A stretch of DNA of 64,000 bases from positions 18,860-82,859 of the forward strand of contig CAYTKF010000001.1 in assembly GCA_964438405.1 (NCBI GenBank), given 5' to 3'. The position numbers and the translations under genes were made by a program. The notes beneath the pieces were generated by a model. That model searched no databases. It saw only the letters and a list, made by a program, of their open reading frames with translations, and was not told the origin of the DNA. Origin of the DNA: an uncultured Candidatus Saccharibacteria bacterium. Lineage in GTDB: Bacteria; Patescibacteriota; Minisyncoccia; UBA9983. This document shows positions 4,726-50,002 of this stretch, piece after piece; the first letter of the stretch is position 1; each line of letters starts with the position of its first letter.

Positions 4726-6612
4726 ACTTTCTGGGTCTATATCTATTTTCCAGTTTGGCGTTAAAGATAACAATTTTTCGTAAAGTTTGGGCTGTTTGTC
4801 CGGCCAGGTTTCTGGGTCTAATTTTAAGAGCAAATGCCAGGAATAAATATTTTTTACTTTGGGAATAAATGCCGGATAAATTATTGGTTTCCATTCTTCT
4901 AAATCTCTTTTTAATTTTTCAATTTCTATTTTTAATTTTGAATTGTCCCTGCCTTCTTTGGTAATTTTAATTAAAAGTTTGAACGGCGGGTATTCAAAAT
5001 TTTTGCGGTTTTCAATTTCGTCTTTATAAAAACCGGAAATATTGCCCTTAACCACGTTGTCAAAAATTGAAGTTGATTCAGCCAATCTGCTCTGGATTAA
5101 AAAAGTCTTTTTTGCCAAATATCTGAGTTTTAATAAAATATGGAAAATTTTTTCATTGATTCTAAAGTCAGGCAGGCCGAAGAGAGAGTCAAGGGAAACT
5201 ACACCAACACGTTCTATGGGAGAATCTTTTAGGGCGTTAAAATAAGAAAAAATTATTTCCGTGCCTATTAAAATTGAGCCGGGCGAGTTCAAAAATTTTT
5301 CCGCAGTTTCCTTTCCCTGTTTTATATTTTTGATAATATCGCTGTCCATTCTAAAAATTTTAAATTTGGGAAAAAGTTTTTCTATTTCCTCAAAAACTTT
5401 TTCCGCGCCCATGCCCAGTGTTATCAATCTCCAGCTCTTGCAATAAGGGCATCTCTCCGGAGATTTTGTGATAGAGAGACATTTGTGGCAGACCCAGTCT
5501 CCGGGCGGTTTATGCAGAACAAGGGGCGTGGCGCATTTATCGCACAATATCACAAATTGGCAGTCCTGGCAGATAGTGGTCGGGCTATGCCCTTTGCGGT
5601 TGATAAACAAAAGAACCCTTTCGTTGTTTTTGTAGGCCTCTTCTATAATTTCTTTAAGCTGATGACTGATGACTAAAAGCTCTTTGGGCCTTTGCCAGTT
5701 CAAACTGCTCTGTTCCTTTTTCATGTCAACGATAATCTGTTCTGCCTCGGACAGGGGGCGGGAAAATGAGGGATTTTTTTCTTTGCCGAAAAAGGTTTCC
5801 GTCCGTATCAGAGAATCGCCGATGATAAAACGTTTTTTTGTTTTTCTGCATATTATTTCAATAATTTTTCTGACGTCGAGATGCGGCCTCTGTTCCAGCT
5901 TGTAAAGAGAAGAATTTTCTTCTTCCATAATTATGGTGCCGATATCTTTTCTCGGCAAAGAGAGAAAAGTTTTTGTGGCTGTTATCAAAACAGGATGTTC
6001 CTCCATTAAAATTTTACTCCACGTCTCCCTGATTTTTTTGGCCGGAATTTTACCGTGCAGAATAAAAGTATAATTTTCTATACCCTTTTGTATTTCCTGA
6101 GAAATTTTTTCCAGATCGGAAATCGCCGGCATACACAAAAAAACAGAATGCCCTCTGGCAAATTCTTCTCTGATTATGCTTTTATAATATTGAAAGCGGT
6201 CTTTGGGAGGATATTGCGCCAGAACAATTTCTTGTCTTGGAAGAGCAGTTTTGATATTCTCGTTTTTTAAAGGGGAAGGATTGTCAAAAATAATTGAGGG
6301 GACAAAATCTTTTAGCACTTCTCCCGCTGACGACAGAAAATATTTTGCGCCTTCTTCGCAGGCGCCTATAAAATCTTTATCAAAGAAACATGAAGCCTTT
6401 ACGCTTTTTATGGATTTTAGGACAAAACCAGACTTTTTGAGAGTGGACTTCAAACTTTTAAGCTCATCCACAGAAGAAACAATTGCCGGAATTATTCTTT
6501 TTTTAAGCGGTATGGTTACAAGAGCGCCCGGCTCCACGTCCTTGCTGGTAAAATAAGAAAGTTTTTCTTTCGGCACGCCCTTGGCAATGGGAATAACATT
6601 TGCGATTTTCAT
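4717..6612 (-). CDS. priA: Primosomal protein N' (PriA)-like; zinc-binding cysteine cluster intact but helicase Walker A/B motifs degenerate
   Basis: 631 aa. C-x2-C...C-x2-C...C-x2-C...C-x2-C cluster (CQDCQ..CDKC..CHKC..CPYC) is typical of PriA. The GxTGSGKT position reads QYPPKDRF and the DEEH position reads MEEEN. Confidence 0.6.
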   Translation of the reverse strand: MKIANVIPIAKGVPKEKLSYFTSKDVEPGALVTIPLKKRIIPAIVSSVDELKSLKSTLKKSGFVLKSIKSVKASCFFDKDFIGACEEGAKYFLSSAGEVLKDFVPSIIFDNPSPLKNENIKTALPRQEIVLAQYPPKDRFQYYKSIIREEFARGHSVFLCMPAISDLEKISQEIQKGIENYTFILHGKIPAKKIRETWSKILMEEHPVLITATKTFLSLPRKDIGTIIMEEENSSLYKLEQRPHLDVRKIIEIICRKTKKRFIIGDSLIRTETFFGKEKNPSFSRPLSEAEQIIVDMKKEQSSLNWQRPKELLVISHQLKEIIEEAYKNNERVLLFINRKGHSPTTICQDCQFVILCDKCATPLVLHKPPGDWVCHKCLSITKSPERCPYCKSWRLITLGMGAEKVFEEIEKLFPKFKIFRMDSDIIKNIKQGKETAEKFLNSPGSILIGTEIIFSYFNALKDSPIERVGVVSLDSLFGLPDFRINEKIFHILLKLRYLAKKTFLIQSRLAESTSIFDNVVKGNISGFYKDEIENRKNFEYPPFKLLIKITKEGRDNSKLKIEIEKLKRDLEEWKPIIYPAFIPKVKNIYSWHLLLKLDPETWPDKQPKLYEKLLSLTPNWKIDIDPESLL

Positions 6613-9790: not shown

Positions 9791-10846
9791 TTGTCTGTAA
9801 TTATTTTTATAATCGTTCTTGCGATTTTGATTTTGTCCCATGAGTTTGGGCATTTTATTACTGCAAAAAAGGCTGGGATAAGAGTGGACGAATTTGCCAT
9901 TGGCTTTCCTCCGCGATTATTCAGCTGGAAAAAAGGGGAAACAACTTACGCCGTAAATCTCTTGCCTCTTGGCGGTTATGTAAAAATTCACGGCGAAGAT
10001 GATGCCACAAACCCAAACGACCCGCGAAGTTTCGCGTCAAAATCAGCGCTGACAAGGACAATGGTTTTGGCTTCAGGTGTTTTGTTTAATCTTGTTCTGG
10101 CATGGGTTTTGATTTCTTTGGGCTATATTATCGGTTTGCCCACCAGCACCTCTGCTGTTCCAGCGGGCGCAAATATCAGTAATGTAAGAATAATTGTCAT
10201 AGAAGTGGCAAAAGATTCTCCTGCAGAAATGGTTGGGATTAAGGCAGGGGATGAGATAATCGGTTTTTCCCGCATTCAAGATTTCCAAAATTTTATCAGC
10301 GTCAACAAAAATAAGGAAGTTTCCATAAATCTAAACCACAACGGAGAAGGTATTTCTGTTAAACTTGTGCCAAGAAAAAATCCGCCCCAGGGCCAGGGCG
10401 CAATCGGCATTGCCATGGACGAGGCAGGCACATTAAAACTTCCGTGGTATAAGGCTTTGCCTTACGCCGCAAAATTTACTTATCAATTAACAATTGCCAT
10501 TGCCGTCGCAACTTATTCTTTTATTGTTGATGCCTTTCGAGGTTTGGCTGGTTTTGACCAGGTGATGGGGCCGGTTGGCATTGCAGGCGCAACAGGAGCT
10601 GCGGCAAAAATGGGATTTTCGTATCTTCTCGGTTTTATTTCTATGCTTTCCATAAATCTGGCTATTATCAATATTCTTCCGTTCCCGGCATTGGACGGCG
10701 GAAGAATTTTATTTCTGCTCATAGAAAAAATTAAGGGCTCGCCAGTGAGCGAAAGATTCAGCAGTATTGCCCACGCCGTAGGCCTGGCATTACTTCTGGT
10801 TCTAATGCTGGCAATAACCTACCGTGACATTTTACGGTTGATCTAA
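9791..10846 (+). CDS. rseP: RIP metalloprotease RseP (site-2 protease, PDZ-containing), TTG start
   Basis: HEFGHFITAKKAGIRVDEFAIGFPP (HExxH), PDZ-like middle region, and C-terminal LDGG motif. Confidence 0.85.
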   Translation: MSVIIFIIVLAILILSHEFGHFITAKKAGIRVDEFAIGFPPRLFSWKKGETTYAVNLLPLGGYVKIHGEDDATNPNDPRSFASKSALTRTMVLASGVLFNLVLAWVLISLGYIIGLPTSTSAVPAGANISNVRIIVIEVAKDSPAEMVGIKAGDEIIGFSRIQDFQNFISVNKNKEVSINLNHNGEGISVKLVPRKNPPQGQGAIGIAMDEAGTLKLPWYKALPYAAKFTYQLTIAIAVATYSFIVDAFRGLAGFDQVMGPVGIAGATGAAAKMGFSYLLGFISMLSINLAIINILPFPALDGGRILFLLIEKIKGSPVSERFSSIAHAVGLALLLVLMLAITYRDILRLI

Positions 10847-10873
10847 AAACTAAAAATAATTAATTTTTTATAT

Positions 10874-10917
10874 CTATTGTGAACAAATGGAACGATCGTG
10901 AAAAATGGTAACAATAG
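10874..10917. promoter_or_regulatory. 44-bp quasi-palindrome centred exactly on CGATCG (downstream-flank copy for PaaX-like gene 1)
   Basis: ctattgtgaacaaatggaaCGATCGtgaaaaatggtaacaatag. Terminal ctattgt/acaatag are exact inverted repeats, with 19-nt arms on each side of CGATCG. Confidence 0.5.
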
Positions 10918-10930
10918 ATTAGTAATAGAT

Positions 10931-11593
10931 TTATTGTTTTATTATTGCGCTCTTGAGTAAATTCTTAAAATAATATAAAACTTTCTCATCAGTCATTTCT
11001 TTTACAAGAAATATTTTCACAAGGGGCTTTATATTAAAAAAATCTTTTAAGAATTCTATTTCTTCTATACAAGGGAAAGGATGAACCCAAACGCTTTTCT
11101 GACACTGATAAAAATTAAGATCTTCCAATTTATTTCTAAGCGAGTCTCTAATTTTTCTTTGGTTTTCCGGTATGTCAAAAATAACAAGCCGCCAATTTCC
11201 ATCCCAATTTTTTGGGACACTAATTTTTAATTCATCAAGGATAAACTTTTTAATTTTTTTCTTTCCATTTTCAGTAACAGTATAAATAAGACAATCTTCT
11301 TCTTCTTTTAAAAATTCCAAATTGTGTTTTTGTTTTAATTTATTAAAGGTATACCATATTTTTCTATATTCTTCGTAACTTTCTCTTTTTTGCCTTTGTC
11401 TTATTTTTTCTATTATTCCTAAAACGTTAGGGAAGGCGACGCCAAAGGTTAAAATTCCTCCGGTAGCTATTAATGCAAGGGTGGCATTAAGAGTAGTTTT
11501 GGCTTTAGAGTTTTCTTTTATTATCCTTAAAAGATACTTTTTAAGGTTTGGTTCTAGGGTTGTTTCAAATTTTATCGGTTTGTGTTTAGGCAT
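10931..11593 (-). CDS. PaaX-family transcriptional regulator-like protein (paralog 1)
   Basis: NWDGNWRLVIFDIPENQRKIRDSLRNKLEDLNFYQCQKSVWVHP parallels the WDGKW...LW.GFG...P core of PaaX. Paralogous to 48177..48734. Confidence 0.5.
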   Translation of the reverse strand: MPKHKPIKFETTLEPNLKKYLLRIIKENSKAKTTLNATLALIATGGILTFGVAFPNVLGIIEKIRQRQKRESYEEYRKIWYTFNKLKQKHNLEFLKEEEDCLIYTVTENGKKKIKKFILDELKISVPKNWDGNWRLVIFDIPENQRKIRDSLRNKLEDLNFYQCQKSVWVHPFPCIEEIEFLKDFFNIKPLVKIFLVKEMTDEKVLYYFKNLLKSAIIKQ

Positions 11594-11626
11594 ATATTAT
11601 ATATTAATTATATATTACCACAGACT

Positions 11627-11670
11627 GCATTGTGACCAAATGGAGCGGTCGTGAAAAATGGTAACAATAG
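11627..11670. promoter_or_regulatory. Second copy of the 44-bp element (41/44 identical), upstream flank of PaaX-like gene 1
   Basis: gcattgtgaccaaatggagcggtcgtgaaaaatggtaacaatag, in the same orientation as 10874..10917. Confidence 0.5.
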
Positions 11671-11726
11671 AAAGTGGATGAGAATAGAGTAGTTACGGAA
11701 AATAAGTTGTGATATAATTTATTTAC

Positions 11727-11951
11727 ATGATGAAAACAGGCAAAATAATTATCTTTACTTTTATTTTATTCATTTTTTTCTTTTTTACGCCTCATTCTTT
11801 TGCCGCCACTTCTCCGGATTGGACCATTAATTTCAGTTGGAACGATGTGTCTGTTAATAATAACGGTCAATATGATTTTCCGTTAAATGTTCAAGGAAAC
11901 GGTACTTATACTTGGCTAGGTGGAAGTGCTTATGGTGAGATATATAAATGA
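11727..11951 (+). CDS. Small secreted protein, or the signal-peptide-bearing N-terminal part of the downstream peptidase (ATGA stop/start overlap)
   Basis: Signal peptide IIIFTFILFIFFFFTPHSFAATSP. Its TGA stop overlaps the ATG of the next ORF. Confidence 0.4.
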   Translation: MMKTGKIIIFTFILFIFFFFTPHSFAATSPDWTINFSWNDVSVNNNGQYDFPLNVQGNGTYTWLGGSAYGEIYK

Positions 11952-14320: not shown

Positions 14321-14384
14321 AAATCCTTGCTTCGTTTAAATTTTTGAAGTAGAGTTAATAATTATAAGTTAAACCATTAAACTT
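14321..14384 (+). promoter_or_regulatory. Conserved 64-nt leader/promoter region, copy A (upstream of S8 protease 1)
   Basis: aaatccttgcttcgtttaaatttttgaagtagagttaataattataagttaaaccattaaactt. About 85% identical to 16262..16324. Possible -35 ttgctt and -10 tagagt/tagtat. Confidence 0.5.
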
Positions 14385-16259
14385 ATGAAAAAAATACACA
14401 ACCATCTACTTGAACACAGCAAATGGTATAGTGATTGGCACAACTATTCACGCTGCTCAGTGGTGCACTGGGCTGTATTTGTTGTTGTTACTATGCTGCT
14501 TATGACCGGTACTTTATTGAGTATTCAGAAATTTGTTGTTTTAACAGAAAGTGAATCCAATATTGCCAGCGTTATAGTTCCCAGCTATAAGGGCGGTAAA
14601 GTCGGAGAAGCAGAAGACCATATTTTGGTAAAATTTAAAAAAACTTTGACTACCAAAGAACAAGAAAAAATACTTTCCAGAAACAATTTGAAAGAGAAAT
14701 CAGAAATTAAAGCCATCGGTGTAAAATTAATCTCTATCTCCGCCGATGATACTCCCCAAGAAGCAGTAGACAAATTGAAAGCCAAGGAAAAAGGCAATCT
14801 GGAATTTGTTGAAGTTGATGCTATTTTAGCTCCTGATTTAATACCAAATGATTCCTATTGGCCAAGCCAGTGGGACAAATCAAAGATCAACACTCCCTTA
14901 GCTTGGGATTCTAATACTGGCTCAAATACTGTAATTGTGGGTGTCGCGGATACAGGTGTTGATTGCACCCACGAAGATTTAACGGCCAATTGTGTTTCCG
15001 GTTGGAATTTTTATGATAACAATTCAAATGCTGCTGATGTTTATGGCCATGGGACTGCTGTTGCCGGAATTATTGGAGCTGCCGGCAATAATGCAAGGGG
15101 GGTAGCCGGAACAGTTTGGAATTCTAAAATTATGCCATTGCGGGTTAGCGGAACCAGTGGTTCCGCTACCTATTCGGCCATTGCCCAAGCTATAATTTAT
15201 GCAGCTGACCATGGAGTAAAAGTGGTGAACAACAGCTATCAATCGGGAGGCAGCGCCACAGTTAGGAGCGCTGCTCATTATTTGAAAAGTAAAGGAGGGC
15301 TTCTTATAGTAAGTGAGGGTAATTACGGCACTCTTACTAGCTACGACAATAGCCCGGACCTGATATCTGTCTCTGCAACTGACCCCAATGATGCTCTCTA
15401 TTCTTGGTCGTCTTATGGCAATGATGTGGACGTTTCTGCCCCGGGCTGCGGATATGCCACAGCAAACGGCGGAAGTTATAGAAGTTTTTGCGGCACTTCC
15501 AATTCTGCCCCGGAAGTGGCAGGTGCTCTGGCTCTTATCTTTTCGGTTAATTCTAGCTTAACTGCCGATCAAGCCCAAACTATCTTATTCAATTCCGCAA
15601 AAGATCTTGGCATTGCAGGTTGGGATATATATTTCGGATGGGGCAGAATAGATGTCGGGGCGGCCGTGGCATTGGCTAAGGGCGGAACTTCAAATGACAC
15701 TACTTCTCCTTCGGCACCAACCAATCTTTCCGCCTCTGCTCCGGATGAGACAAAAGTAAATTTGGCATGGACAGCTTCTATCGACAATACAGGAGTTGTC
15801 GGTTACCAAGTGTTTAGAGACAGCAATCAAATTGCCATTGTAAGCTCAACTAATTATACAGATACAAATGTTACTTCTGGTGCCAGTTATTCATACACAG
15901 TCAAGGCTTACGATGCTGTTGGTAATGTCTCTCCAAGTAGCAATACAGCTACAGTTACTGTGCCCACTGTTTCTGCCAAAGTCAGTATTTTGAATTATTC
16001 CGTAACAAAAAAGACTGCCACTACAGCCACTATCACTTGGACCACCAACATTCCCTCTACTGGTTTTGTCTCCTATAGTTCATCTTCTATAAACTTAAAT
16101 CTTTCTGCCACTGACGGAATTATCGGAACTACACATTCTGTAACAATTACTAATTTGACCAAATTCAGGATATATTATTACAAAATTACTGTTACCAGCG
16201 GAGATGGTTCCAGCACAGCTTCATCACCGGTTTCAAATTTCAGAACTAATAAAAAATAA
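14385..16259 (+). CDS. Secreted subtilisin-like serine protease (S8) with C-terminal fibronectin-III-like domains
   Basis: Catalytic triad contexts VGVADTGVD (Asp), HGTAVAGIIGA (His), GTSNSAPEVAG (Ser). Two FN3-like repeats at the C-terminus. Confidence 0.85.
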   Translation: MKKIHNHLLEHSKWYSDWHNYSRCSVVHWAVFVVVTMLLMTGTLLSIQKFVVLTESESNIASVIVPSYKGGKVGEAEDHILVKFKKTLTTKEQEKILSRNNLKEKSEIKAIGVKLISISADDTPQEAVDKLKAKEKGNLEFVEVDAILAPDLIPNDSYWPSQWDKSKINTPLAWDSNTGSNTVIVGVADTGVDCTHEDLTANCVSGWNFYDNNSNAADVYGHGTAVAGIIGAAGNNARGVAGTVWNSKIMPLRVSGTSGSATYSAIAQAIIYAADHGVKVVNNSYQSGGSATVRSAAHYLKSKGGLLIVSEGNYGTLTSYDNSPDLISVSATDPNDALYSWSSYGNDVDVSAPGCGYATANGGSYRSFCGTSNSAPEVAGALALIFSVNSSLTADQAQTILFNSAKDLGIAGWDIYFGWGRIDVGAAVALAKGGTSNDTTSPSAPTNLSASAPDETKVNLAWTASIDNTGVVGYQVFRDSNQIAIVSSTNYTDTNVTSGASYSYTVKAYDAVGNVSPSSNTATVTVPTVSAKVSILNYSVTKKTATTATITWTTNIPSTGFVSYSSSSINLNLSATDGIIGTTHSVTITNLTKFRIYYYKITVTSGDGSSTASSPVSNFRTNKK

Positions 16260-16261
16260 CC

Positions 16262-16324
16262 AAATCCTTGCTTCGTTTAAGTTTTTGAAGTAGTATTAAG
16301 AATTATAAGTTAAACTATTAAATT
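16262..16324 (+). promoter_or_regulatory. Conserved leader/promoter region, copy B (upstream of S8 protease 2)
   Basis: aaatccttgcttcgtttaagtttttgaagtagtattaagaattataagttaaactattaaatt. Confidence 0.5.
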
Positions 16325-46812: not shown

Positions 46813-47913
46813 ATGAAGAGAGAAAGGGCTGATAATATTTTTTTGGGAACGGTGATTATTCTGGCTTTGGCCGGATTTATAATTTTAAGTTCCGCTTCAA
46901 TGGGGCTTTTAAGCAGCAGTAATGGCAGTTATTATAAAACGCTCATCCAGCAGTTTTTATTCGGCATTGTCGGAGGAGGCATTCTTCTTTTGATAACATC
47001 ACACATAAATTATAAGATGTGGCAGAAATTCAGCCTGCCATTTTTTATTTTTACTTTTCTTCTCACTCTTCTTGTTTTTGTACCTGGTATAGGATTCAGC
47101 CACGGCGGGGCCACAAGATGGATAAACATCGGTTCATTCTCTTTCCATCCGTCAGAACTTTTAAAATTCGGTTTTGTTGTTTATCTTTGCTCATGGCTGG
47201 CCTCAAAAAAAACCCAGATAAAATCTTTTAAGTCCGGGCTTGTGCCGTTTTTGATAATGACTGCCTTGGTTGCTGCCGTTCTCATCAAAGAGCCGGACGT
47301 GGGCACATTGGGCGTGATTGCCATAACAAGCATGATTATTTTTTTTATTGCCGGAGGCAAGCTGTCGCACATTGCCCTTATTATTCTTTTTGGCGCCTTG
47401 CTTCTTTATATTCTTGTTTTGATAGAACCGTACCGCATGAACAGAGTGATAACTTTTTTTAACCCCTCTTTTGACCCCAAGGGCATAAGTTATCAATTGA
47501 GGCAGTCGCTTATTGCCATCGGCTCAGGGGGAATATTCGGCAGGGGATTCGGCATGAGCGTGCAGAAATTTAATTATTTGCCGGAACCGATAGGCGACTC
47601 CATCTTTTCGGTCTTCTCCGAGGAATTCGGTTTTGTCGGCGCAGTGGCGCTTCTGGGCATTTTATTGTTTTTTCTTTACAGAGGATTTTCCATTGCCCTG
47701 AAAGCTCCTGATGATTTTAGTAGACTGCTTGGCGCTGGAATTGTTATACTGATAATTACGGAATCGCTGGTAAATATTGCGGCAATGCTCGGCATTTTGC
47801 CCTTAACCGGCATTCCCTTAATTTTTGTGAGCAAGGGCGGTTCAGCAATGGCCGTGGCTTTGGCAGAGGTTGGAGTATTATTAAATATTTCAAAACATCG
47901 GAGTAATCAGTAA
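46813..47913 (+). CDS. SEDS-family peptidoglycan glycosyltransferase (FtsW/RodA)
   Basis: GGATRWINIGSFSFHPSELLKFGFVVYL, 10 TM, C-terminal PLTGIPLIFVSKGGS. Confidence 0.85.
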   Translation: MKRERADNIFLGTVIILALAGFIILSSASMGLLSSSNGSYYKTLIQQFLFGIVGGGILLLITSHINYKMWQKFSLPFFIFTFLLTLLVFVPGIGFSHGGATRWINIGSFSFHPSELLKFGFVVYLCSWLASKKTQIKSFKSGLVPFLIMTALVAAVLIKEPDVGTLGVIAITSMIIFFIAGGKLSHIALIILFGALLLYILVLIEPYRMNRVITFFNPSFDPKGISYQLRQSLIAIGSGGIFGRGFGMSVQKFNYLPEPIGDSIFSVFSEEFGFVGAVALLGILLFFLYRGFSIALKAPDDFSRLLGAGIVILIITESLVNIAAMLGILPLTGIPLIFVSKGGSAMAVALAEVGVLLNISKHRSNQ

Positions 47914-48066: not shown

Positions 48067-48101
48067 TTATAATCAAAAACAGAAATTAAAAAAATAAAAA
48101 A

Positions 48102-48139
48102 TTAACGTATTCACAACCGATCGGTCGCCAATGCGTTAA
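48102..48139. promoter_or_regulatory. 38-bp quasi-palindrome centred exactly on CGATCG (upstream flank of PaaX-like gene 2)
   Basis: ttaacgtattcacaacCGATCGgtcgccaatgcgttaa. ttaacg/cgttaa termini are exact inverted repeats, with 16-nt arms. Confidence 0.5.
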
Positions 48140-48176
48140 TTTAATGTTAAGATATAATTAAGAATAAAATATCATT

Positions 48177-48734
48177 ATGGCTATAAAAATAAAAAGCGAA
48201 ACGAAACAAAAAATTCTACTTTTGCTTTTGGCGGGTTTGGCGTTAGGAATGTCAAAAACACCCAAAAGATATTTTAAGGTACTGAAAACTATTCCCAAAG
48301 AATGGAAAGATATAAAAAGAAGACAATTATTGGATGCTGTCCGCGAATTTTATAACAATAGAATCGTTGATTATAAAGAACTAAATGATGGCACAGTAGA
48401 AGTTGTCTTAACAAAAGAGGGAAGAAAGAGAGCGTTAATTTTTAAAATTGACGAAATGGAAATTAAAAAACCAGATAAGTGGGATGGCAAATGGAGAATA
48501 GTTATTTTTGATATTCCGGAAAAGAAGAGGGCAGCCAGATTTGCATTAAGAAACAAACTTAAAGATCTTGGTTTTAAAGAATTACAGAAAAGCGTTTTTG
48601 TTCATCCTTACGAATGCGAGGATGAAATTGATTTTATTGTAGAAGTATTTGAAATTAGACCCTATGTAAAATTCTTAAGAACAGATTCTTTTACAAATGA
48701 TGAACAATTTAAATTAAAATTTAAGATTTATTAA
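48177..48734 (+). CDS. PaaX-family transcriptional regulator-like protein (paralog 2)
   Basis: KWDGKWRIVIFDIPEKKRAARFALRNKLKDLGFKELQKSVFVHPYE. N-terminal wHTH-like segment KQKILLLLLAGLALG. Confidence 0.5.
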   Translation: MAIKIKSETKQKILLLLLAGLALGMSKTPKRYFKVLKTIPKEWKDIKRRQLLDAVREFYNNRIVDYKELNDGTVEVVLTKEGRKRALIFKIDEMEIKKPDKWDGKWRIVIFDIPEKKRAARFALRNKLKDLGFKELQKSVFVHPYECEDEIDFIVEVFEIRPYVKFLRTDSFTNDEQFKLKFKIY

Positions 48735-48762
48735 AAAAATATTAAAAACATATTTAATAAAA

Positions 48763-48800
48763 TTTACGTGTTTGTGGCCGATCGGTCACAGGTGCGTTAA
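48763..48800. promoter_or_regulatory. Second copy of the 38-bp CGATCG-centred palindrome (downstream flank of PaaX-like gene 2)
   Basis: tttacgtgtttgtggcCGATCGgtcacaggtgcgttaa. Inner tgtggccgatcggtcaca is a 16/18 palindrome. Confidence 0.5.
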
Positions 48801-48874
48801 TTTTAAAAATTAAATTAGAACTTAAAAAGTTGATAAGTTTTGTTTAAAGTCTTTAAATAATATATAATATCAAT

Positions 48875-50002
48875 ATGAAAATTTTGTTAGCAGGTGGGGG
48901 AACGGGCGGACATTTTTTTCCGTTGATGGCTGTGGCTGATGCGCTTAATGCTATTGCCGAACAGGAAAAAATCGCCAAAGTGGAAATTGTTTTTGCCTCT
49001 GACTCGCCCTATGACGAAAACCTGCTTTTGCAAAAGGGCATAAGATTTAAAAAAATTCCCGCGGGAAAAATCAGAAGGTATTTTTCTCTTTTAAATATTA
49101 TTGATGTTTTTAAAACAGGTATCGGATTATTAAAGGCCCTCTGGAGCATTTATCTTGATTTTCCTGATGTCATTTTCAGCAAGGGTGGTTATGCCAGCTT
49201 TCCTGTTGTTTTTGTAGCTAGAATTTTGGGCATACCATTGATTATCCATGAATCAGACACTGTGCCCGGCAGAGTAAACCGCTGGTCAGCCAAATTCGCC
49301 AAGAGAATCGCCATATCTTTTCCTCAGACAATAAAATATTTTCCAAAAGAAAAAACAGCCCTCACAGGCAATCCGGTAAGGAAAGAACTGCTTGTGCCGG
49401 CAAAAATCGGTGCAAAAGAATTTTTTAAACTTGAGGAAGCCACGCCTGTCATTATGATTTTCGGCGGTTCCCAGGGCTCGCAGAGAATAAACGATAATTT
49501 TTTGGATATAATCAGCGAGCTGGTAAAAAAATACCAAATCATTCATCAGGCGGGCAAAAAAAATTTTGACTATGTCAAAGGCAGGGCTGATGTTATTCTG
49601 GAAAATTCAGAATTCAAATCGCGGTATCAAGTTTTTGGGTTTTTAGATTTATCCATGATGAGAATGGCCTACGGCGCAAGCGACATTGTAGTGGCAAGAG
49701 CTGGTTCTGCCTCTATTTTTGAAATTGCCGCATCAGGCCTACCGTCTATTTTGATTCCCTTGGCAAATTCAGCCCAGAATCATCAGAAAGAAAACGCATT
49801 TAGCTATGCCTCGCTTGGCGCTGCTGATGTTATAGAAGAATCAAATCTTTCGCCCAGCGTATTGCGGGTTGAAATAGAAAGAATTTTGGGAGATAAAGAA
49901 AAAATGAAAAAAATGTCCGGGGTCGCTAAAAAATTTGTAAAACCAGACGCAGCAGAAAAACTGGCGCGGGAAATCATCGGCCTTGCCCTAGAGCACGCGT
50001 AA
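48875..50002 (+). CDS. murG: Undecaprenyldiphospho-muramoylpentapeptide beta-N-acetylglucosaminyltransferase MurG
   Basis: MKILLAGGGTGGHFFPLMAVADAL; C-terminal GT-B domain. Confidence 0.85.
   Translation: MKILLAGGGTGGHFFPLMAVADALNAIAEQEKIAKVEIVFASDSPYDENLLLQKGIRFKKIPAGKIRRYFSLLNIIDVFKTGIGLLKALWSIYLDFPDVIFSKGGYASFPVVFVARILGIPLIIHESDTVPGRVNRWSAKFAKRIAISFPQTIKYFPKEKTALTGNPVRKELLVPAKIGAKEFFKLEEATPVIMIFGGSQGSQRINDNFLDIISELVKKYQIIHQAGKKNFDYVKGRADVILENSEFKSRYQVFGFLDLSMMRMAYGASDIVVARAGSASIFEIAASGLPSILIPLANSAQNHQKENAFSYASLGAADVIEESNLSPSVLRVEIERILGDKEKMKKMSGVAKKFVKPDAAEKLAREIIGLALEHA

Follow-up and report, generated by a model that had tools for sequence, protein, structure and literature searches.

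In Escherichia coli, PaaX recognises the operator TGATTC-N27-GAATCA, which spans approximately 39 base pairs (bp), and represses its own Px promoter by steric hindrance (PMC9493321). Here we analysed a stretch of 64,000 nucleotides (nt) from an uncultured Candidatus Saccharibacteria bacterium (contig CAYTKF010000001.1, positions 18,860 to 82,859; hereafter the window), in which the gene of a short PaaX-like protein of 220 amino acids (aa) is bracketed by two near-identical copies of a 43-nt quasi-palindrome, one upstream (the U site) and one downstream (the D site). The site-gene-site layout is a property of the whole protein family, and the elements are probably double-stranded DNA operators of the encoded protein, which would act as an autoregulating dimeric repressor. 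A full-text literature search returned no description of the self-bracketing of this family, nor of a DNA-reading Cas2-like domain; this short, self-bracketed form of the PaaX-type repressor and operator, expanded in Patescibacteria, is apparently undescribed.

The resemblance to E. coli PaaX lies in the domain order, in which a Cas2-like central domain comes after an N-terminal winged helix, and in a long-span inverted-repeat operator overlapping the regulator's own promoter, operator and promoter being predicted from sequence here. In contrast to E. coli PaaX (operators Pa, Pz, Px; pac), the window protein has neither the ligand-binding domain PaaX_C, which binds phenylacetyl-CoA, nor a match to the N-terminal Pfam model of PaaX, and the proteins of the family comprise 180–220 aa instead of around 305. 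At its centre, the family operator has in addition a palindrome that is strongly conserved and varies with residues of the Cas2-like domain. Sites stand on both sides of the gene, several paralogues are often present in one Patescibacteria genome, and no paa genes are encoded nearby.

Paired operators are well established in the lac (O1/O2), gal (OE/OI) and deo systems, where an auxiliary operator lies hundreds of bp downstream of the promoter operator. The family shares this arrangement of one operator on the promoter and a second copy hundreds of bp downstream, but in the family this second copy is located past the end of the regulator gene itself and is equally conserved, and the U-D distance shows no helical phasing. 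With respect to Cas2 and VapD, the match covers only about 36 residues of a domain fused to a winged helix, with no cas1 beside the gene and no tandem array in the window. Unlike Cas2, the domain of this family appears to read the sequence of duplex DNA, a role that to our knowledge is not known for Cas2. RAYT genes with their REP elements are likewise flanked by copies of a paralogue-specific palindrome; however, the family protein is not an HUH/Y1 enzyme (the only Pfam matches are PaaX_M and Cas2, and the structure matches PaaX and Cas2), its palindromes are not dispersed in high copy but occur twice per type locally, and the copies are direct rather than inverted.

Self-bracketing of the gene and of its family

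The initial annotation had placed the 220-aa gene and both flanking copies where we find them (Table 1), with the same centres, CGATCG in the downstream copy (copy 1) and CGGTCG in the upstream one. Its figure of 41/44 identities does not hold over the 44-nt coordinates it gave (39/44, the first two bases being ct versus gc), although the near-identical pair is real: in the best register, the repeat core of the D site and the U site are identical at 40 of 43 positions, in the same orientation and at a spacing of 753. The 7-bp inverted termini ctattgt/acaatag are present in copy 1 only, copy 2 having 5 bp (attgt/acaat), and the exact "19 + CGATCG + 19" symmetry is one of length; mirrored positions are complementary in 15 of 22 pairs of copy 1 and 12 of 22 pairs of copy 2. 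Exactly two copies of the 43-nt element occur in the window at up to three mismatches, and none in 100 shuffled sequences; the repeat is far beyond chance.

The family is large, with 4,932 representatives of 50%-identity clusters at E ≤ 0.001 and 2,518 at E ≤ 1e-10. In a collection of species-representative genomes, nearly all matches were titled as Patescibacteria (Candidate Phyla Radiation, CPR) lineages, and three records carried other or generic labels. For the analysis of bracketing, 84 loci were gathered, in which a family hidden Markov model identified 91 family genes; approximately 300 nt of upstream flank were aligned locally to approximately 300 nt of downstream flank, with a threshold score of 32. 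This score was reached by 71 of the 86 testable family genes versus 12 of 576 control open reading frames of at least 200 aa, and all seven loci fetched later were likewise bracketed. An orthologue with 80% identity (locus L001) and orthologues with 65% identity in other gene contexts carry on both gene sides an element of different sequence but of the same plan. Each bracketed family member has a palindrome of its own.

The hexamer CGATCG occurs five times in the window, three times within family elements (10893, 48118, 48779); the stretches around the remaining two occurrences (42235, 53860) are unlike family elements.

A PaaX-like protein that is not a PaaX

The protein encoded by the bracketed gene matches Pfam PaaX_M (PF20803) over aa 128–198 with an E-value of 7.9e-23 and 80.8 bits (cut-off 24). 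No Pfam model, PF07848 (the PaaX winged helix) included, matched its N-terminal part; PaaX_C (PF08223) was not matched either, and the chain stops about 20 residues beyond the Cas2-like domain. The PaaX equivalog model TIGR02277 gave 29.7 bits, far below its cut-off of 264.55. Cas2 models exceeded their cut-offs over aa 134–170 only (TIGR01573, 30.0 bits versus 24.5; PF09827, 25.9 versus 23.8), and PADLOC returned partial Cas2 matches only. An AlphaFold2 model built from 30 orthologues (mean predicted local distance difference test score 83) contains N-terminal helices, a long helix (62–88), a β-hairpin wing (92–106) and then a ferredoxin-like domain. Structure searches with this model matched PaaX, as the best hit, and Cas2; a sequence search of the PDB with the family profile gave no match. 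Because PaaX_M is matched, TIGR02277 stays far below cut-off and PaaX_C is absent, the protein shares the plan of PaaX without being a PaaX itself. The membership in the PaaX-family winged helix-turn-helix regulators proposed earlier thus applies to the central domain and the overall fold. As for the core motif cited in its favour, the GF is present in most orthologues and reads NF in the window protein.

The Asp of an FDIPE motif in the Cas2-like domain is invariant. Two traits are specific to the orthogroup of the window gene: the N-terminus MPKHKPIKFE, which is invariant within it, and a 25-aa hydrophobic stretch at aa 37–61, ATLALIATGGILTFGVAFPNVLGII, possibly an anchor in the membrane or a surface for oligomerisation (the confidence of the model is low at aa 51–65).

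Anatomy of the palindrome

Alignment of the sites of 64 gene pairs on their centres revealed an 8-bp centre G-C-N-A|T-N-G-C, with the C at −3 and the G at +3 each present in 97%. Complementarity is 84–98% at ±1–4, drops to around 50% in 4-nt spacers at ±5–8 and rises again to 70–88% in 10-bp inverted arms at ±9–18, giving an element of 36–44 bp. Identity between the U and D sites of a gene is 61–100% from −20 to +20 and falls to a background of ~30% beyond, so the repeat coincides exactly with the palindrome. At the centre stand the hexamers CGATCG (45), CTATAG (17), CCATGG (14) and CATATG (9), plus one-off variants. The median distance is 48 nt from the U centre to the start codon and 38 nt from the stop codon to the D centre. 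When 1.1 megabases were scanned for this architecture, 77 sites emerged, versus none in shuffled sequences; 54 of the 77 are within 150 nt of the end of a family gene. D sites equal U sites in palindrome quality and in conservation between orthologues.

Palindromes of this kind could also be envisaged as hairpins in RNA or single-stranded DNA that serve as terminators, transcript stabilisers or processing sites. The Cas2-like protein would then recognise structure, cleaving or binding the ends of its own transcript; the nuclease activity of Cas2 and VapD relatives, together with the invariant Asp of FDIPE, would suit such a function. Many elements do fold stably, the median predicted RNA stability being −12.1 kcal/mol for U and for D sites versus −4.6 kcal/mol for shuffled sequences, and the copies are mostly in direct orientation (56 versus 12). 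However, complementarity and covariation persist at positions ±1 and ±2 (CGATCG, CTATAG, CCATGG, CATATG) even though these would lie at the tip of any hairpin, unable to pair, and there is no pairing in the 4-nt spacers. Strand bias of the kind expected from G-U pairing in a transcript is absent among wobble-type mismatches (132 versus 115), and the window copies fold weakly (−7.7 kcal/mol, z −2.3 and −1.7). The scan for intrinsic terminators calls neither copy around the window gene, although the D site of a second module in the window (described below) passes a terminator-like scan with a 14-bp stem. Across the family, no T-rich tail is seen beside U or D sites, and Rfam gave nothing relevant at gathering thresholds for the whole window or at permissive thresholds for 10750–11800. 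The D site as a specialised terminator was considered and rejected, since U and D sites are alike in hairpin strength and in T-rich tails. These observations favour double-stranded DNA sites rather than RNA hairpins as the form in which the elements would act, and we consider the hairpin explanation very unlikely, also in view of the promoter position and the residue-to-base rule presented below.

The U site overlaps the predicted core promoter

The best sigma-70-type match on the gene's strand in the window is a predicted promoter of the regulator gene itself (Table 1). Its −35 hexamer GTCACA (11636–11631) falls within the U-site arm nearer the gene, followed by an 18-nt spacer and the −10 hexamer TATAAT (11612–11607); the U site ends 35 nt from the ATG. 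Across the family, −10-like hexamers are three times more frequent on the gene side of U sites than beside D sites (112 versus 36). With the predicted −35 inside the U site and the −10 enrichment beside it, U sites therefore seem to lie on the core promoter and to be mostly not transcribed, which is difficult to reconcile with a hairpin acting at transcript ends. The best −10-like hexamer often ends 6–9 nt before the start codon (64 loci), which suggests leaderless or near-leaderless transcripts in many family genes; a Shine-Dalgarno motif was not evident in the family cases read.

No comparable function was assigned to the D site as promoter of the following gene: this idea was rejected, there being no −10 enrichment beside D sites and 22 of 60 D sites being located in convergent regions. 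The D site of the window gene is an example, as it begins 12 nt past the regulator stop codon in a convergent intergenic region shared with rseP (9791..10846, + strand).

Residue-to-base rule and concerted evolution

The presence of its own site on both sides of each gene means that every genome provides matched protein-site pairs without any experiment. The clearest correspondence concerns residue 143, which is the E of FDIPE, opens helix α1 of the Cas2-like domain and tracks the base at ±2. Of 47 cases with E or D at this position, 46 have G or T at ±2; Q is accompanied by C (CCATGG) in 7 of 7, and I, V, N or A by A (CATATG). The contingency of residue 143 on this base gives a Fisher p of 4.6e-11. 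Within the clade FDIxxL[KQ][RK], neighbour-joining places E-type and Q-type proteins among one another, and each of them has the matching type of centre.

Among 399 close protein pairs, the strongest adequately sampled couplings link residue 143 with base 2 and residue 150 with base 4, followed by residues 146 and 166; three couplings to base 3 ranked higher, but with only 18 informative pairs behind them. Residue 143 differs in 76% of the pairs when base 2 differs and in 22% when it does not. Positions 143, 146 and 150 lie on one face of the helix. In the putative recognition helix of the winged-helix domain, R85 is associated with G/C at arm position 13 (p = 6e-5) and R/K81 with C at position 14 (p = 2e-5).

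The rule was also applied prospectively, to homologues of a Q-type protein chosen by residue 143 alone, whose loci were fetched afterwards. All three E proteins have GCGATCGC (CGATCG) and both Q proteins have GCCATGGC, so that 5/5 were correct. Among these loci, an H protein has GCCATGGC. An N protein (locus L096, 420–481 and 1060–1121) has a new type of centre, GCCTAGGC upstream and GCGTAGGC downstream, with T-A replacing A-T at ±1, which hints at further entries in the recognition code. E goes with base pairs whose partner strand carries C or A, both amino-bearing, and Q or a hydrophobic residue with those that carry G or T there. Such a split between amino- and keto-bearing bases is, as we infer on chemical grounds, what would be expected from major-groove reading of duplex DNA, and it is a further point against hairpins as the form recognised.

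Changes are shared between the two copies and also between the two halves of each. For 152 protein pairs at 50–95% identity, the identity of U and D within a genome is 0.80, in comparison to 0.51 for U-U and 0.50 for D-D between genomes, and the within-genome value was higher in 147 of the 152 pairs. This concerted evolution excludes a single ancient duplication as the cause of the similarity of the copies and fits a shared reader.

Proposed mechanism and the role of the D site

The protein would most likely bind as a dimer, formed through the Cas2-like domain, with the two winged-helix domains reading the outer inverted arms and the start of helix α1 (residues 143, 146 and 150) reading the central C-N-A-T-N-G palindrome on the dyad axis. 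Because the U site overlaps the −35 of the gene's promoter, its occupation would block RNA polymerase and the gene would repress itself. As a best guess, the D site would serve as an auxiliary operator and increase the occupancy of the promoter, either by cooperative binding or through a loop of ~750 bp. The proposal in the initial annotation of a dimeric-regulator operator with paired sites for autoregulation is supported by the bracketing of 71/86 genes, the promoter overlap, the residue-to-base rule and the match in span to the E. coli PaaX operator.

Several observations weigh against this account. Besides having non-palindromic spacer bases in common, the U and D sites are directly oriented in 56 of the 68 informative cases; a symmetric dimer does not explain the shared spacers together with the direct orientation. 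D sites are devoid of promoter features and lie between convergent genes in the proportion given above. The U-D distance shows no helical phasing, and the protein has no recognisable ligand-binding domain. The only detectable near-identical sites flank the regulator's own gene, with no obvious target in the window, on a 191-kilobase (kb) contig or in the JGI metagenomes. The residue-to-base rule is partly confounded by phylogeny, and mutual information (with average-product correction) between protein columns and operator positions gave no significant domain-level enrichment; the pairwise-difference test and the contingency tables are more informative than mutual information.

Some of these points would be accommodated if the role were architectural, with protein-bound paired sites marking or insulating a transcription unit by blocking read-through, by closing a topological loop or by forming a boundary, and with self-bracketing keeping the protein near its own sites. 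Constraint on the D site equals that on the U site, both in palindrome quality and in orthologue conservation, the D sites between convergent genes (22/60) would need no promoter, and no wider regulon was found for the window orthogroup. Moreover, pairs of the same type bracket housekeeping operons. In locus L063, palindromes at 872 and 6388 enclose Mur-ligase-like, DegT, nadA and nadB genes, and in locus L049, palindromes at 571 and 5473 enclose nusB-NUDIX, rnc and smc, in both cases with no family gene inside; the cognate regulators of these pairs must be encoded elsewhere in those genomes. Locus L048, where a paralogue stands beside ftsW, shows the order site-gene-site-ftsW-site. On the other hand, the position of U sites on the core promoter family-wide is the classic geometry of a repressor, some bracketing pairs can be read as two regulated promoters (the L063 site at 6388 is 37 nt before the next gene), there is no phasing or other signature of looping, and the PaaX family offers no precedent. 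As an account of the whole system, the architectural role is therefore unlikely in our judgement. For the D site taken by itself, however, a roadblock or boundary role would fit nearly as well as that of an auxiliary operator.

Regulon, gene context and mobility

The search for further genes marked by the element, suggested by the initial annotation, yielded no extra copies in the window. In the JGI metagenomes, a degenerate pattern fitting all four copies of the window and of L001 found only the flanking pair of the 80% orthologue, on one contig of 191 kb. Extra copies of a gene's own element within ±10 kb were present for 3 of 64 genes, and an element of the L066 type recurs on another contig of the same genome (L084, 17963). 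Elsewhere, sites of the same architecture occur about once per 65 kb and are unassigned.

The neighbours of the window gene are rseP, frr and genes of secreted proteins. The rseP-frr-holB-mreB side is syntenic in the 80% orthologue, and four assemblies with an identical protein (six contigs read) have the same context, with the sites unchanged in every copy recovered. This constancy bears on the idea of a transposable cassette, also raised in the initial annotation. The site-gene-site unit would then be a present or recent mobile or selfish cassette, its direct repeats being duplicated targets or recombination ends, in the manner of RAYT genes with REP elements, IS200/IS605 ends or a repeat-spacer-repeat unit. 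The direct orientation, the sharp end of the repeat at the ends of the element, the possession of an own palindrome by each paralogue as in RAYT genes with their own REPs, the Cas2-like fold and the differing gene neighbourhoods of orthologues are all in its favour. Opposed to it are, besides the constant neighbourhood and synteny, the presence of only two copies per type locally and the co-evolution of U with D and of the half-sites, a pattern that a single duplication could not have left behind. The regulator has no transposase, integrase or Cas1 gene next to it (Cas1 was not searched for across the whole window), a tandem-repeat scan of the window found no array, and an IMG/VR scan of 2.9 million viral contigs found no relative. 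No variable context, extra copies or adjacent recombinase was seen in a comparison that included few close relatives. We regard a mobile cassette as most improbable.

An origin of the repeats as tRNA-derived attachment (att) sites was also considered; they are not such sites, since the only match of a tRNA scan was an unrelated tRNA-Glu. Elsewhere in the window, a 61-nt direct repeat (14321–14381 and 16262–16322; 92% identical) flanks a subtilisin-like protease gene (14385..16259). This repeat does not belong to the family type of palindrome and is probably the shared 5' region of tandem paralogous genes.

A second module in the window

The window contains a second family gene, which is among the 71 bracketed ones; its 44-nt palindromes are CCGATCGG-centred and of their own type (Table 1). 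It is located between ftsW/rodA (46813..47913) and murG (48875..50002). Together with the paralogue beside ftsW in locus L048, this suggests that one subfamily is linked to the cluster of cell-division and cell-wall genes.

Table 1. Coordinates of the regulator genes, their flanking sites and the predicted promoter in the window.
Feature	Position	Strand	Description
D site (downstream operator copy, putative)	10872..10919	.	quasi-palindrome ATCTATTGT...CGATCG...ACAATAGAT
D site, repeat core	10876-10918		centre CGATCG at 10893-10898
Short PaaX-like protein gene	10931..11593	-	220 aa, PaaX_M match, no PaaX_C domain
Predicted sigma-70-type promoter of the regulator gene	11607..11636	-	consensus match at 10/12 positions; the match alone does not prove function
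U site (upstream operator copy, putative)	11629..11671	.	centre CGGTCG at 11646-11651
Second module, U site	48099..48142	.	AAATTAACGTATTCACAACCGATCGGTCGCCAATGCGTTAATTT
Second family gene	48177..48734	+	185 aa, PaaX_M 1.9e-25
Second module, D site	48760..48803	.	AAATTTACGTGTTTGTGGCCGATCGGTCACAGGTGCGTTAATTT

Concluding remarks

Patescibacteria (CPR) are ultra-small bacteria and have tiny genomes with few recognisable regulators, and almost nothing is known of their gene regulation. In a more far-reaching reading of the family, the Cas2-like domain would be a sequence-specific duplex reader on the centre of the repeat flanking its own gene, and each module (repeat, gene of ~0.65 kb, repeat) would be self-contained and closed by its protein. 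We find this quite unlikely; if it were true, this large Patescibacteria family might represent a free-living relative of the link between Cas2 and palindromic repeats, or a new gene-by-gene insulation of the chromosome, and not simply one more family of repressors. The equal conservation of the downstream, putative operator is a regularity of the family. The matched pairs of proteins and sites constitute a ready data set for a DNA-recognition code, whose first rule is that residue 143 sets the base at ±2, and this rule points to an undescribed DNA-reading role for the Cas2-like domain.

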